Virus record (IMG/VR): IMGVR_UViG_3300032270_001329
Coordinates: 2,440-66,439 of that record
Strand: one strand, 5' to 3'
Source of the DNA: a virus
Taxonomy: Duplodnaviria; Caudoviricetes
DNA length: 64,000 nt
Made by a program: the position numbers and the translations under genes. This document shows, piece by piece, positions 5,180 to 55,294 of the stretch. Numbering within the stretch: position 1 is the stretch's first letter; the number at the start of each line of letters is the position of its first letter. Below the pieces are notes generated by a model. It searched no databases and was not told where the DNA came from. It was given only the letters and a program-made list of their open reading frames with translations.

Positions 5180-5776
5180 TCAACCCCGGCGCATTCCAGA
5201 ACGCAGGCCAGCGATATTGGCCATGGCATTGTTGTATGCGGCTTGGTTGACTGCATTCAGCATGACAGCTTCCGAGCCGGTGGCGGTTGCCATCTGCTGT
5301 TGGGCGGAAGCGGCGCGTTCCTGCTGACGTGTTGGGGACTGGATGTCAGCCATCAGGCCCAACTGGTAATCAGTCAGGCGAGTCGACTTGGCCAGGCGCT
5401 CCATTGCTGGGATGTAGCTCTGGAACATCTGCTGAGTTAAAAGTGCATCGTAAAGATTATCTTGTTTACGGCGCTGCGACTGGCGCTGCTGGAACGTTTC
5501 AAACTCAGGGCTCAGGAGCTCCCCAAACATTCCCTTGGTTGGGGTTGTTGTTTCAGACTTGAACTCACCTGGTTTTGGTTCAGCAAAGGGAGGCTCTGTG
5601 CCGATAGCAAAACCACCGGAGTATTTACCTAGGTCAACAGTCTTGCCTGTCGTGAAATCAATCCCTTTAAAACTGGGGGCAGGATTTTTAAACACGTCCT
5701 TAGCAACTGCACCAGGCTTATAAGAAGCATTCAATGCGTCTTTAAAGACGGAGAGGAAATCAGTTGCAGAAGCCAT
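5180..5776 (-). CDS. Hypothetical (putative internal virion) protein
   Basis: 198 aa in a tightly packed structural operon; A/Q-rich C-terminus. Confidence 0.65.
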   Translation of the reverse strand: MASATDFLSVFKDALNASYKPGAVAKDVFKNPAPSFKGIDFTTGKTVDLGKYSGGFAIGTEPPFAEPKPGEFKSETTTPTKGMFGELLSPEFETFQQRQSQRRKQDNLYDALLTQQMFQSYIPAMERLAKSTRLTDYQLGLMADIQSPTRQQERAASAQQQMATATGSEAVMLNAVNQAAYNNAMANIAGLRSGMRRG

Positions 5777-5778
5777 GA

Positions 5779-6558
5779 TCAGAGGTAACGGTATTGAGTG
5801 CGGAGGCCAGCGCCGACATCACCCAGAGCTTGAGCGCCCATGGCGCCAGCAATACGTTGGCCGCCCAGGGTCAGTCCTTGCTGCGTAGCCAGATCAGTAG
5901 CGAGACGAGCAGCAGCTGCGCTACGAGCAAGATCACGGGTCTTAGCTTCATCCAGGTAGGAGCGCTCCAGGTTCATAAACTTACCAGCACCTTCCAGACC
6001 CACATCTTGGGCGCGGCGCTGAAGTTCGAGAGCACCCATCTCGTAGCCCTGGGGGTTCAGCATCTCAGAGGCTGTACGCGGGCCACGGGGCATACCAGGG
6101 GCAGCCTCGGTTTCAAGAGGAGTGAACTCACCGGTGGCTGTATCAAACACGCCTTGAACCATGCGGCCAGCACCGATTGCCTCTGTCACAGGTGGAATAA
6201 CCTTTCCGGGAGCCTTTGCAACAGCTGGAATAGCCTTACCAGCTAACCCACCAATTAAAGGAGCTGCAAGCATACCGCCAGCAATAGGAATGGCGCCGGC
6301 TGCAACAGCTTTTGCCATTAAGGGGCTTCCTTTGATGCCAAGGGTGGACGCAACTCCTGGAGCTGCTGCAATACCACTTTTGGTAAGTGCTCGAATTGGA
6401 GCAGCGCCTAACTTACCGCCTAAAAATCCGAGTCCACCACCGGCTAATGCGCCTAAGGGGCCGCCTTCTTTTGCACCTTCTAAAGCACCATATCCAGCAG
6501 TGATGTAGGGCAGGGCTTGCATAGCCATGCGGCCAGCTCCCAGAAGTGCAGGTACCAT
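5779..6558 (-). CDS. Gly/Ala-rich putative internal virion (ejection-like) protein
   Basis: 259 aa with GxxG hydrophobic repeats; operon context. Confidence 0.65.
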   Translation of the reverse strand: MVPALLGAGRMAMQALPYITAGYGALEGAKEGGPLGALAGGGLGFLGGKLGAAPIRALTKSGIAAAPGVASTLGIKGSPLMAKAVAAGAIPIAGGMLAAPLIGGLAGKAIPAVAKAPGKVIPPVTEAIGAGRMVQGVFDTATGEFTPLETEAAPGMPRGPRTASEMLNPQGYEMGALELQRRAQDVGLEGAGKFMNLERSYLDEAKTRDLARSAAAARLATDLATQQGLTLGGQRIAGAMGAQALGDVGAGLRTQYRYL

Positions 6559-24892: not shown

Positions 24893-25441
24893 ATGAAGTA
24901 CCCTTTCCTCAAGATTCTGGAAGAAAACTGGAAGGATGTCCTCGAAGAGCTGGACAACCTCCTTTACAACGAAGTGGTGTCGGGTAAGTCTTACTTCTCC
25001 CCCTGGCACGAGACCGACATCTATGACGGCGGTTGGGATGTCTTTGGTCTCTACGCGTTTGGAGAAAAACTGGAGAGCAACTGCAGTTACTGCCCCAAAA
25101 CAACAGCTCTTGTTGAGCAGGTGCCAGGTCTTGTGACCGCTGGCTTCTCAGCCCTGGAGCCAGAAACCTACATCAAACCCCATGTCGGCTACACCGGTGA
25201 GGTGTTGCGCTGCCATCTCGGATTGATTTCGCCTAAGCGTTCGTCCAATGGACTGAGCCGTGAGCACCCTGTTCCGCTAATCAACTGCGGAATGCGGGTT
25301 GGTGACATCATCTACACCTGGACGCCAGGCAAAGCCTTCGTGTTTGACGACACAGAAGAGCATGAGGCGTTCAACTACGGTGATCGCACCAGGTTTATCT
25401 TGCTGCTTGACTTCAAGCGTGAGGAAAACCCGTCAGACTAA
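24893..25441 (+). CDS. Aspartyl/asparaginyl beta-hydroxylase family (2OG-Fe(II)) protein
   Basis: IKPHVG, LRCHLGL, FVFDDTEEHEAFN..RFILLLD. Confidence 0.88.
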   Translation: MKYPFLKILEENWKDVLEELDNLLYNEVVSGKSYFSPWHETDIYDGGWDVFGLYAFGEKLESNCSYCPKTTALVEQVPGLVTAGFSALEPETYIKPHVGYTGEVLRCHLGLISPKRSSNGLSREHPVPLINCGMRVGDIIYTWTPGKAFVFDDTEEHEAFNYGDRTRFILLLDFKREENPSD

Positions 25442-25585
25442 GCCGCCGACCTGGCAAGGACGGTATTTCTTTCCCCTATACTTCAGCCAGATGTGGGCCG
25501 CATGGACCATGTTCCACCACTGACGGTTGGTTGCAGCTTCTTCTTCCTTGAAGTATTTGCAACCCCGGTAGGTTAGTTGGGTCAT
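25433..25585 (-). CDS. DUF4278-like 50-aa protein
   Basis: Manual translation MTQLTYRGCKY...WLKYRGKKY: two YRGxxY motifs typical of cyanobacterial DUF4278. Confidence 0.7.
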   Translation of the reverse strand: MTQLTYRGCKYFKEEEAATNRQWWNMVHAAHIWLKYRGKKYRPCQVGGLV

Positions 25586-25619
25586 TTTAATAACCACATA
25601 CACATAACTGTATGAGGTT

Positions 25620-25635
25620 TGTATAAATTACTACC
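25620..25635. promoter_or_regulatory. NtcA-type box
   Basis: TGTATAAATTACTACC (GTA-N8-TAC), 34 nt upstream of the DUF4278-like ATG; shares AATTACTAC with the 16746 box. Confidence 0.55.
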
Positions 25636-25672
25636 GTTTAGTGTGTAACACTAACTGTTAAATGATTATTAA

Positions 25673-25790
25673 TATGGGGGTGCAGCCGTACCTTAGCTAC
25701 TCGGCGCGGCTGTTCAGTTACCAGGCGTTGGAAACAGCAAAAACAACGCCTCCCCCGTAATAAGGCCCTACCGCTGTTCTTCTTCGGGCC
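25673..25790 (+). ncRNA. Candidate structured RNA with three-way junction and kissing loops
   Basis: Four stems of 5-8 bp and 6-nt loop-loop complementarity. Confidence 0.55.
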
Positions 25791-25830
25791 ACTCGTATAA
25801 TAGGTCTTATGTGCTTAGTTTCGATGCCCT

Positions 25831-26061
25831 GTGACCACTTTAATCAAACCCAAAATCATTGGGTGTGTTGCCTGTGATTCCGGCACACTCGCTGTTGTTG
25901 ACCCGAGCCATCTCGGTGTCACTAAAAATGGGGCTGTGTCTATGCCTCCTTGGAATCTCTTTACTACCATCAATACTGAGATAGGAGACGGTGAGTTCAC
26001 TGTCCATGAACAAAGAGATTCAAATGGTAGACTCCGTCGTATCGTTATCGAGCTGGAATGA
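25831..26061 (+). CDS. Hypothetical protein
   Basis: IGCVACDSGTLAVVDP motif; TATAAT at 25796. Confidence 0.65.
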   Translation: MTTLIKPKIIGCVACDSGTLAVVDPSHLGVTKNGAVSMPPWNLFTTINTEIGDGEFTVHEQRDSNGRLRRIVIELE

Positions 26062-26342
26062 AGATCCTCAACCCAGAGCGTGAACCTAATCTCTGGTTGG
26101 AAGCAGTGCTCATGGAACTACTGCAGAATCCAGAGGAGGATTCTCGGGAAGCTCTGGAACAAGCAATCCATTGCCTGTGTTCTTGGATTGAACCAGGGGT
26201 GATTGACAGTCTGTTTGCTCCTTGGATTGAAGATTACATGAAGGTTTTGTCAGCAAATCAAAACAATCAAAGTATCGATCCTCTGCCGTATTTGCTAAAG
26301 GGTCAGAAGGAACCTTCTCCGCAATCTGGTACAGCTGCCTGA
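26058..26342 (+). CDS. Hypothetical protein
   Basis: ATGA-coupled; acidic helical. Confidence 0.55.
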   Translation: MKILNPEREPNLWLEAVLMELLQNPEEDSREALEQAIHCLCSWIEPGVIDSLFAPWIEDYMKVLSANQNNQSIDPLPYLLKGQKEPSPQSGTAA

Positions 26343-26778
26343 CAGGATCATCTGAGTAAGGAGGTCTGAACCAGTAGAACTTCTTCTCATCATGATCAAT
26401 GACCCACTCCGGATGGTACCGGTGCCACCTGGACCACGCGTGGAATTGACGCTCTGGATCCTTGGACGTGCAGTCCAGGACAATGGCGTCGCCACTGGGT
26501 ATGGTCCAGCGGAGTTTTAAGACGTGCTCAAATCCCATGCGGATGGAGCGCATACCGTTTTTACCAACCAGCTGGTGGTGAAGTGAGCGCCAACGCTTGT
26601 TCTTCCGTTTCCAAAACCAATCGTTCAGCTGGCGGTTGGAGTTGCCAATCGCAAAGCCAACATTCCACGTCCAAAATCCTTTGGAGTACTCAAACCACGG
26701 CTCAAAGAAAACTTTACAAAGCTGATCGTTGACTTTAAATGTATGGCTTGTAAACTTACGCCGTACTCGGTAAGTCAT
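26110..26778 (-). CDS. Trp-rich hypothetical protein
   Basis: MTYRVRRK..., 222 aa; tail overlaps 26058..26342 antisense. Confidence 0.6.
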   Translation of the reverse strand: MTYRVRRKFTSHTFKVNDQLCKVFFEPWFEYSKGFWTWNVGFAIGNSNRQLNDWFWKRKNKRWRSLHHQLVGKNGMRSIRMGFEHVLKLRWTIPSGDAIVLDCTSKDPERQFHAWSRWHRYHPEWVIDHDEKKFYWFRPPYSDDPVRQLYQIAEKVPSDPLANTAEDRYFDCFDLLTKPSCNLQSKEQTDCQSPLVQSKNTGNGLLVPELPENPPLDSAVVP

Positions 26779-26780
26779 GT

Positions 26781-27065
26781 GTGGAAGAACTAATTTCACT
26801 CATCCAACAGGACCCAGAACTCTGGGCCATTGTGGATCAGCTAAAAAACCAGGATGAAGACCTGGGGGATTTCATCTTGAGCATAGCTCAGATGTTGTCA
26901 GTTGAGTTCGAAGAGCTGCATCGCACGGATCTCAGCGACAAGCTCAGCGCCCTCTTTGGTGGACTGCCTCCATCGGCATTCAAGATGGCGCCTCTGATGC
27001 TCCACGTTGCTCTCGACATCTTCCTGATGCGGTCCATCCCGGATCACAACGCTGTGAGGGACTGA
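26781..27065 (+). CDS. Hypothetical protein
   Basis: 94 aa helical, GTG start. Confidence 0.6.
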   Translation: MEELISLIQQDPELWAIVDQLKNQDEDLGDFILSIAQMLSVEFEELHRTDLSDKLSALFGGLPPSAFKMAPLMLHVALDIFLMRSIPDHNAVRD

Positions 27066-35992: not shown

Positions 35993-36589
35993 ATGGCTGA
36001 CAAACTTTCCCTGATTCAAATCTCAGAATCCATCCAGCACATTGGGTTTCTGAAGGATCTGCCTGACATCCCAGAGGATGAGCGGGCCATGCTGGAGCAG
36101 CACCTTCTTGATTTGGCTTCCCGCCAGGAGTCCAAGTTCGATTCCATCATCGGCATGGTCAAGAAGTGCGATGCCTACATCGAGGCATTGGAAGATGAGA
36201 TGGCGGAAATCAAAGCAAATCTTGAGGCTTGGAAAAAGAATCGAGAGAAGATGATTTCCATCATCAAGTTCGCGTACCAGCAGGATCTCATTGGCAACAA
36301 GCCAACGGGCATCAAGTATCAGGCAACGATCCGTAAGGTCAAGCCTCGTCTGGTGGACAACTTTGACCACTGGGAGGACGAGGATCGCGTTGAGTTTGGT
36401 CTACGCAAGACCACAACCATCACGCGCATCAAAGATGAGTCCGTTGTCGAAGTCAAGCAGGAGGAACTGCCTGACAAAGATCGGGTCCGTGATGCCCTCA
36501 CTGCTGATGATGGTTCGGCTCCAATGCAAGCACAACTTGTTCCTGGGTTCTCGTTTGTTTATGAACGCCGCAAGAGGTTGACAACCTGA
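35993..36589 (+). CDS. Siphovirus Gp157-like protein
   Basis: Coiled-coil KFDSIIGMVK..IEALEDEM; PDKDRVRDAL..AQL pattern. Confidence 0.6.
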   Translation: MADKLSLIQISESIQHIGFLKDLPDIPEDERAMLEQHLLDLASRQESKFDSIIGMVKKCDAYIEALEDEMAEIKANLEAWKKNREKMISIIKFAYQQDLIGNKPTGIKYQATIRKVKPRLVDNFDHWEDEDRVEFGLRKTTTITRIKDESVVEVKQEELPDKDRVRDALTADDGSAPMQAQLVPGFSFVYERRKRLTT

Positions 36590-55063: not shown

Positions 55064-55140
55064 GCCCGTGTAGCCCAATCGGCAGAGGCGACGGATTTAA
55101 GCTCCGTTCAGTGTTGGTTCAAGTCCGACCACGGGTACCA
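55064..55140 (+). tRNA. trnL-UAA: tRNA-Leu(UAA) with short variable loop, CCA encoded
   Basis: GCCCGTG/CACGGGT acceptor, anticodon arm ACGGA-TTTAAGC-TCCGT, T-loop TTCAAGT. Confidence 0.88.
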
Positions 55141-55144
55141 CGTT

Positions 55145-55221
55145 CGGGATGTAGCTCAGCTTGGTAGAGCGCTGTCTTTGGGAGGCAGATGCCGCAGGTT
55201 CGAATCCTGCCATCCCGACCA
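55145..55221 (+). tRNA. trnP-UGG: tRNA-Pro(UGG), CCA encoded
   Basis: CGGGATG/CATCCCG acceptor, anticodon loop TTTGGGA, T-loop TTCGAAT. Confidence 0.95.
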
Positions 55222-55222
55222 C

Positions 55223-55294
55223 GCTGGATTAGCTCAGTGGTAGAGCAGGGATTTTGTAAATCTCAGGCCACCCGTTCAAATCGGGTATCCAGCT
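55223..55294 (+). tRNA. trnT-UGU: tRNA-Thr(UGU), CCA not encoded
   Basis: GCTGGAT/ATCCAGC acceptor, anticodon loop TTTGTAA, T-loop TTCAAAT. Confidence 0.92.

Follow-up and report, generated by a model that had tools for sequence, protein, structure and literature searches.

A kissing-loop RNA family from phage genomes and its possible relationship to the cyanobacterial CyVA-1 small RNA

Results

Genes and features at the locus

The DNA analysed here (the window) covers 64 kb of an IMG/VR virus record of 66.4 kb, and it looks like part of a cyanophage genome. It encodes ThyX, an ArdC-like protein, an Asp/Asn beta-hydroxylase, a family-A DNA polymerase (PolA), a primase, an endolysin and a large terminase (TerL; phrog_38, E 4e-79), together with a cluster of three tRNA genes (55064-55294, +), which were the only matches to Rfam over the whole window at gathering thresholds. 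A minus-strand gene at 25433..25585 encodes a 50-residue DUF4278 (IF17-like) protein (Pfam PF14105, E 3.6e-5, 24.5 bits, slightly below the 25.3-bit cutoff), and the plus strand carries the divergent p76-PolA operon; the gap separating the two is filled by the RNA that is the subject of this work. On the p76 side, a 229-residue minus-strand ORF (26110-26799), which belongs to no family and is conserved in relatives at 37-63% identity, overlaps a conserved 94-residue plus-strand ORF (26058-26342) antisense by 233 nt; one of these two ORF calls, which together span 26058-26799, may be partly spurious.

In plus-strand letters, the gap contains four stems: P1 (TATGGGGG, 25673-25680, with CCCCCGTA, 25752-25759), P2 (GCAGCCG, 25682-25688, with CGGCTGT, 25707-25713), P3 (AGGCGTTG, 25723-25730, with CAACGCCT, 25744-25751) and P4 (GGCCC, 25764-25768, with GGGCC, 25786-25790). 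All four had been proposed in a first-pass annotation, and RNAfold of the plus strand returned each of them (-48.3 kcal/mol, z = -3.29, with 1/200 shuffles as good). The same annotation had proposed pairing between AACAGC (25733-25738) in the P3 loop and GCTGTT (25773-25778) in the P4 loop; the two are exact complements, and the kissing helix that they form is 99.8-100% paired across relatives.

Relatives and covariation

With PolA and the DUF4278 protein as handles, about 50 related viral contigs were collected, across which the intergenic block is 70-75% identical; p76 and the hydroxylase proved to be poor handles. In an alignment of 27 distinct copies, 98.6% of 888 cells are paired and 27 of the 33 pairs, counting stems and kissing helix, show compensatory changes; none of 500 shuffles was as good and slid controls were 40-53% paired. 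RNAalifold independently re-predicted the nested stems P1-P4 (28 pairs, 23 with a compensatory change). A covariance model built without the pseudoknot matched the window at 25672-25793 with 119.8 bits, and confirmed 77/77 stretches found by IUPAC pattern in viral contigs and 80/80 of the metagenome stretches fetched (at least 80 exist). The independent metagenome set (n = 71 sequences) has 98.8% of cells paired and 28/33 pairs compensatory, and its kissing helix, which lay outside the search model, is 99.8% paired with 5/6 pairs covarying. Among 126 distinct RNAs the kissing helix occurs in 23 different 6-mer combinations, nearly all of them perfectly complementary. Given the covariation in both sets, together with the shuffles and the slid controls, we regard the stems and the kissing helix as confirmed beyond reasonable doubt. 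The collection of homologues for covariation, which had been suggested alongside the original proposal (a non-coding RNA in the gap between divergent genes, compact and tertiary-folded around a three-way junction), gave 27-28 of 33 compensatory pairs and about 99% of cells paired, and the covariation of the stems and of the kiss bears that proposal out.

At least about 128 distinct relatives are present in viral and metagenome contigs, and the matching stretches in metagenomes and viromes, both marine and freshwater, number at least 200. When the window region and three family members were compared by blastn with 50,697 isolate phage records, none produced a true match; the alignments obtained with one member (L106) were rejected because they fell on an upstream terminator. 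The model likewise gave no match in the replication region of S-EIV1, whose PolA, at 42% identity, is the closest among cyanophage isolates (isolates outside the cyanophages go up to 46%), and none in 151 cyanobacterial genomes. An IUPAC pattern scan of genome contigs gave mostly chance matches, with 2 of the 80 fetched being true, both on MAG contigs that are probably mis-binned; all model matches are on viral or metagenome contigs or on these two.

The strand that is read

The first-pass annotation had assigned the RNA to the plus strand on the basis of G-U pairs in P1 and P2, an assignment that the family reverses. Of the pairs cited, T25675.G25757 lies in an extension of P1 that is not conserved in most relatives, and the closing pair G25682.T25713 is itself not conserved (GT 16, GG 7, GA 3, TC 1; n = 27). 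Over the 27-copy alignment, non-Watson-Crick cells on the plus strand comprise 23 A.C versus 5 G.U, whereas the minus strand has 808 Watson-Crick cells, 68 G.U, 7 A.C and 8 others. Substitution paths run via wobble pairs on the minus strand only, e.g. from G-C through G.U to A-U at alignment columns 88/115. On the minus strand, the apparently conserved CA/CA internal loop of the plus strand reads as a tandem U.G/G.U (U.G in 24/27 and G.U in 21/27 sequences), so that on this strand only P2' (primes denote minus-strand elements) is a continuous 10-bp helix; the window itself has C.A and G.U at this tandem.

A promoter scan placed a -10 box, TATTAT, at 25797..25802 (-), 6 nt ahead of P4'. It overlaps a TATAAT at 25796-25801 (+) that faces the p76-PolA operon, the p76 start codon being about 38 nt from the 5' end of the RNA. 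Among the 65 family members with enough upstream DNA for the scan, 58 have a TAnnnT box that ends 3-10 nt (mode 6-7) ahead of the first minus-strand stem, and the remaining seven have the near-variants CATAAT or (A/C)TAAATA. The latter resemble the T4 late promoter, and TAAATA is present in three other contexts. In two contexts (L007 and L017) the minus-strand box is kept, though the plus strand is without a -10 there. The layout is that of the symmetric bidirectional -10 arrangement known in bacteria (10.1101/2020.01.31.928960), and from its sequence would give two divergent start sites about 18 bp apart.

A plus-strand product, i.e. a small RNA or a 5' leader of the p76-PolA operon, would fit the slightly better folding energy of the window's own sequence on that strand (z = -3.29 versus -1.29) and the perfect TATAAT that lies past P4 in about half of the family. 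However, this TATAAT cannot transcribe the structure because it is downstream of it, no consistent -10 precedes P1, and in L007 the RNA and p76 are kept apart by an inserted minus-strand gene. Further, the 23 A.C cells become G.U, and the CA/CA loop becomes UG/GU, on the minus strand, which is also the orientation of CyVA-1 (below), Rfam matches to which fall on the same strand as those of our model. We consider a plus-strand RNA to be hardly credible: wobble statistics, the position of the -10 box and the CyVA-1 orientation all point to a predicted transcript from the minus strand.

Minus-strand architecture

Read from the minus strand, the RNA begins with the hairpin P4' (25764..25790, GGCCC/GGGCC; 5/5 pairs covary), the loop of which in the window has GAAGAAG, then the kissing 6-mer AACAGC (25773..25778, partner 25733-25738), then GGUA; the family consensus for this loop is gaAGAAGa.C...G.CA. 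There follows the 5' strand of P1' (GGGGG, 25752..25756, partner 25676-25680), the outer pair of which exchanges G-C for A-U, and directly stacked on P1' is the hairpin P3' (25723..25751; 8/8 pairs covary), whose window loop reads UUUUU, the kissing 6-mer GCUGUU (25733..25738, covarying with that of P4') and UC. The strand that leads from P3' to P2', GGUAACUGAA (25713..25722), has near-invariant G, A and GA positions (n = 66 sequences). P2' (25683..25712) has a variable apex and 8-9 of its 10 pairs covary, and the 3' strand of P1' (CCCCC, 25676..25680) is the last structured element. P4' is linked to P1' by 1 nt in about half of the family, and P1' and P3' together make a 12-bp stack. About 30 unpaired nucleotides are invariant; they make up parts of the P4' loop (GAAGAAG and CGUCA) and of the P3' loop (UUUUU and UC) together with the junction strand.

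The apex of P2' (25693-25702) carries the palindrome UGAUCA in 42/128 RNAs, GAUC in 51 and AGCU in 11, with plain tetraloops in the others; the palindrome may be a lineage-specific dimerisation or methylation site. Two further features were considered and rejected, i.e. a pairing of GGUAAC in J3/2 with a downstream GUUAC box, for which covariation is absent, and a 10-codon ORF within the RNA, the stop codon of which is not conserved.

The fold invites comparison with phi29 pRNA (RF00044), which is likewise encoded by a phage, is about 120 nt long and combines a three-way junction with a complementary pair of loops that keep covarying as their sequence drifts (PMC4201828, PMC5066667). The RF00044 model gave no match to the RNA region at E<=10, and unlike in pRNA one of the two loops belongs to a hairpin appended at the 5' end and not to an arm of the junction. 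The kiss in the phage RNA is 6 bp, whereas that of pRNA is 4 bp. In the case of the manA RNA motif (RF01745), also a short structured cyanophage RNA with covarying loop-loop contacts, these contacts turned out to join separate molecules into pentamers and 60-mer cages (10.64898/2026.07.01.735769). Our RNA has no sequence or model similarity to manA RNA, which is described as a 5'-UTR element.

These precedents, pRNA multimerising via its covarying loops (PMC4201828) and cyanophage manA RNAs of <200 nt forming cages via kissing loops (10.64898/2026.07.01.735769), raise the question of whether the P4' loop of one molecule pairs with the P3' loop of another, giving dimers, rings or cages. Covariation is blind to the difference between intra- and intermolecular pairing; by a geometric estimate, the 1-nt link between P4' and P1' and the 12-bp stack mean that an intramolecular kiss needs a sharp fold-back; and the UGAUCA palindrome offers a further self-complementary site. 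On the other hand, a rough distance estimate, allowing for loop linkers of 7 and 5 nt, permits the intramolecular kiss, and many members have plain tetraloops on P2'. The TerL encoded in the window, a standard large terminase, argues against a pRNA-type motor and makes a phi29-type packaging role unlikely. Self-assembly thus seems rather unlikely, and the host relative described below points the same way.

A compact junction with invariant unpaired nucleotides and a loop-loop lock is also what is found in hammerhead or twister-sister ribozymes, which are common in phages, and the RNA might thus be a self-cleaving ribozyme of a new class. We consider this highly improbable, since there is no match to a Rfam ribozyme at E<=10, the junction is without the GAAA and CUGANGA pair of the hammerhead, and no candidate cleavage context is conserved.

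The DUF4278 gene and the question of a riboswitch

The first-pass annotation had raised the possibility of a riboswitch responding to glutamine or 2-oxoglutarate (2-OG), and the neighbouring gene makes a new nitrogen riboswitch an attractive reading, because DUF4278 is the IF17 domain and genes encoding it are those that glutamine riboswitches usually precede (PMC6212724). Under this reading the RNA would be the 5' part of the DUF4278 mRNA, and the about 30 invariant junction and loop nucleotides would fit a binding pocket. A DUF4278-like ORF lies downstream of the RNA and on its strand in 49/128 contexts (38%), in 43 of these within 130 nt, and the association, which is above random-neighbour expectation, recurs in three separate lineages (those of 40% and of 65-80% PolA identity, and L098).

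Against this, a DUF4278-like ORF is missing from 62% of copies, most of which face a convergent gene: within the next 700 nt the gene is convergent in 51 cases and on the same strand in 5. Several such copies have terminator-like hairpins 3' of the RNA. Where the DUF4278 gene is present, it has a promoter-like region of its own outside the RNA (25607..25649, -), which is conserved in 16 aligned leaders and comprises a GT-N10-AC box (25636-25649), a perfect GTA-N8-TAC box (25621-25634) and, 23 nt after the former, a -10 sequence TACAGT (25607-25612). The interval from RNA to ATG is 65-90 nt in the 16 leaders, with the boxes and the -10 at the spacing of an NtcA-type promoter, and from its sequence the block looks like a double NtcA site. 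In two contexts (L004 and L014) an additional gene sits precisely in the interval from the RNA to this block, which stays with the DUF4278 gene, and in two others (L008 and L010) the DUF4278 gene is absent. Nor is there a terminator or an alternative fold sequestering the Shine-Dalgarno sequence beside P1'.

The two glutamine riboswitch classes, glnA RNA (RF01739) and Glutamine-II/Downstream-peptide RNA (RF01704), occur in cyanobacteria and cyanophages, and are junction-plus-pseudoknot folds upstream of DUF4278/IF17-like genes (PMC6212724). The phage RNA is larger and has a different architecture; unlike these 5'-UTR elements, it is split from the gene by the NtcA-type boxes and -10, and neither model matches it. 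The search of Rfam that the first-pass annotation had proposed as a check, run with Rfam 15 at E<=10 over 25400-26100 on both strands, gave only a chance match to mir-883; relatives, as set out below, match CyVA-1 below threshold. As one family member (L112) has a true Glutamine-II riboswitch (RF01704, 44.1 bits) at 5736-5788 (-), 2.3 kb from its kissing-loop RNA, the Rfam models evidently work in these phages and the RNA is probably something else. With no Rfam match, an association of 38% and a separate promoter-like block, a DUF4278 riboswitch for glutamine or 2-OG is unlikely. The DUF4278 gene is a frequent but dispensable neighbour downstream of the RNA, and may be under read-through control.

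The GT-N10-AC/GTA-N8-TAC block is also conserved in the 40%-PolA lineage. Hairpins with a common loop, GCAAUA, and different stems occur 20-45 nt past the RNA in L068, L075, L074, L109 and L053, and may be shared bidirectional terminators.

Genomic contexts

In PolA lineages the RNA always has thyX on one side and the PolA operon on the other, at a distance of 1.1-1.7 kb from PolA, a placement kept even where PolA identity is about 40%, and it is often transcribed against the flanking genes. This constancy, the AT-rich DNA that comes next after the RNA and a local minimum of cumulative GC skew at 25976 would be in keeping with a replication-linked RNA, e.g. a primer, an origin transcript or a counter-transcript controlling the replication module. 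However, the skew trough is broad (24-36 kb) with its global minimum at 36040, gene orientation is unchanged around 25-26 kb, and as an origin marker at this locus the skew is ambiguous. The RNA is also present in unrelated contexts, beside HLIP/UvsW, tail-fibre, 2OG-oxygenase and LAGLIDADG endonuclease genes, and its host relative (below) is a chromosomal small RNA. A role in replication is therefore very unlikely.

The DNA on either side of the RNA is a hot spot for insertions, with inserted genes all on the strand of the RNA; they include a cupin-like gene of 179-182 codons (on either side), a 90-codon gene and a 36-residue HLIP (L004, 809-1348; L007 context, 1603-2151; L014 context, 1198-1470; L106, about 400-511).

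Comparison with CyVA-1

The CyVA-1 RNA motif is Rfam RF02965 (Weinberg et al. 2017, PMC5737381) and is among the RNAs seen in a metatranscriptome (10.1101/761684). When 14 diverse family members were scanned permissively against Rfam, matches to RF02965 were obtained on the strand of the RNA, with 25.1 bits in one (L065) and 20.9 bits in another (L104), the gathering threshold of 41.4 bits not being reached by any member scanned; the window's own sequence gave no match to this model even at E<=10. In the cmscan alignment, P4' and its loop match a CyVA-1 hairpin (hairpin B) column by column, the phage loop GAAGAAGAACNNNCGUCA corresponding to the host loop GAAGGAGAaCGACGUCA, and P4' has the 17-nt loop pattern of CyVA-1, GAAGGAGAnCGNCGUCA. 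The phage RNA does not have the CyVA-1 arrangement of an outer stem enclosing two hairpins, the first with a U-rich and the second with a GAAGGAG loop: the alignment has a deletion in place of the first hairpin and sets the outer stem against promoter DNA and P1'/P3', and the position of the -10 box puts the 5' end of the phage RNA at hairpin B. Although RF02965 exceeds its cut-off in 15/151 sampled cyanobacterial genomes, the phage RNA, with its 0/151, does not share the cyanobacterial chromosome as a location.

Host CyVA-1 loci have a second hairpin, 25-100 nt downstream and outside the 77-nt Rfam model, with a UUUYU-N6-UC loop whose 6-mer complements that of hairpin B (AGCGAU/AUCGCU, AGCGAC/GUCGCU, AACGGU/ACCGUU, AACGGC/GCCGUU, AACGAC/GUCGUU). 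The loop of the first CyVA-1 hairpin is likewise U-rich and pairs with a CAGA-N6-like segment in the second domain. Across ten type-I host RNAs, 98.3% of cells are paired in one kissing helix and 90% in the other, with 2 and 3 covarying pairs respectively, and type I and type II host RNAs differ in their kissing 6-mers; a guessed closing stem for domain 2 was only 40% paired and was rejected. With filters off, the phage model found the A-type hairpin, the type to which P3' belongs (P4' being B-type), by every host CyVA-1 core (13-18 bits), and gave a full-length alignment in L376 (21.9 bits, E 4e-4). Host copies end in Rho-independent terminators and, in most of the 16 loci listed, are not directly upstream of a same-strand ORF of at least 90 codons, which argues against the riboswitch reading of their phage relative.

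As observed in L373-L391, where it occupies about 200 nt from locus position 1501, host CyVA-1 has two domains, two covarying kissing helices and a terminator. It occurs in two subtypes by linker length and in tandem copies in two genomes (G001 and G147). A gene for a multi-pass membrane protein of about 232 residues (MTFFN..., no Pfam family) is directly upstream on the same strand in 11/16 host loci (L376-L379, L382-L387), and a NADAR-domain gene is often downstream on the opposite strand. The product of the 229-residue phage ORF was considered as a homologue of the membrane protein and rejected, the two not being homologous.

The phage and host RNAs are thus alike in that a B-type loop kisses a downstream UUUYU-N6-UC hairpin loop, as P4' kisses P3', in three identical 6-mer pairs (AGCGAU/AUCGCU, AGCGAC/GUCGCU and AACAGC/GCUGUU), and in that the phage RNA also appears as a free-standing gene of small-RNA type. 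They differ in that the phage RNA is without the outer stem and first hairpin and begins at hairpin B, has one three-way junction where the host RNA has two domains and two kissing pairs, and has a junction strand (GGUAACUGAA) and a P2' that do not align with the second host domain. The first-pass annotation had found no known class for the RNA; in fact both of its kissing loops are loop types of the CyVA-1 small RNA. Since the best members score below 41.4 bits, the tie rests on these two loop modules, and because of the score and the missing outer stem and first hairpin we do not count the phage RNA as a member of CyVA-1. It is probably a minimised CyVA-1 relative, although the two modules could be convergent.

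Discussion

The covariation results establish a new and well-supported structured RNA family for cyanophages, with 128 distinct sequences and no Rfam entry of its own, and the genomic and host comparisons inform on what it may be. The reading we favour, to which we give a probability of about 0.6, is that of an independently transcribed, trans-acting folded RNA from the minus strand of the phage, related to CyVA-1, and not that of a cis-acting riboswitch of the DUF4278 gene. Under this reading, the minus strand at 25673-25791 would encode an independent structured RNA of about 118 nt, transcription of which would start about 6 nt downstream of the TATTAT box, in mirror image of the TATAAT that faces p76. 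The transcript would fold as a 5' hairpin, P4', followed by the three-way junction, with P1' stacked on P3' and P2' branching off beyond the conserved 10-nt strand, and the 6-bp helix between the P4' and P3' loops would lock the fold. The P4' loop (GAAGRAG, 6-mer, CGUCA) and the P3' loop (UUUYU, 6-mer, UC) would correspond to the two mutually pairing loop types of the host. We infer that the RNA is independent of its neighbouring genes, and that it descends from, or shares these modules with, CyVA-1.

The about 30 invariant unpaired nucleotides, the rigid lock and the spread across phage lineages suggest a particle that binds something in trans, and the RNA would thus probably act as a folded particle. 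Because both host interaction loops are present, it may take the place of host CyVA-1 or of a binding partner of CyVA-1, or compete with either. That the two orthogonal kissing pairs of the host RNA join two domains of one transcript suggests that the design is intramolecular in the phage RNA also. A search for trans targets with the complement of GAAGAAGAAC was uninformative, the enrichment obtained being that of GAA-rich codons read antisense.

A related but more tentative possibility is that the phage RNA is a mimic or interloper that docks onto host CyVA-1, or onto itself, and so hijacks or replaces the host role, with CyVA-1 being a doubly kissing, two-domain RNA. Such docking, onto the host RNA or onto copies of its own, is conceivable because the phage RNA has exactly one B-type and one A-type loop, sometimes with host 6-mers. 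If this were so, the real two-domain, doubly kissing architecture of CyVA-1 would be missing from Rfam; the current model, as the host loci show, covers only the first of the two interacting domains.

Whether as a substitute or as an interloper, the phage RNA suggests that phages have taken up a trimmed form of a host small RNA. The phage version would indicate a minimal conserved module, i.e. two kissing loops and one junction, and may thus provide a handle on the role of CyVA-1. The results also speak against the attractive but probably wrong reading of a new nitrogen riboswitch for an IF17-like gene. As its loop-loop design resembles those of pRNA and of the manA cages, the RNA is a natural candidate for structural work. 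We found no description in the literature of the phage RNA or of the second CyVA-1 domain; the 10,006 unnamed IMG/VR candidates of PMC10690425 may include the former.
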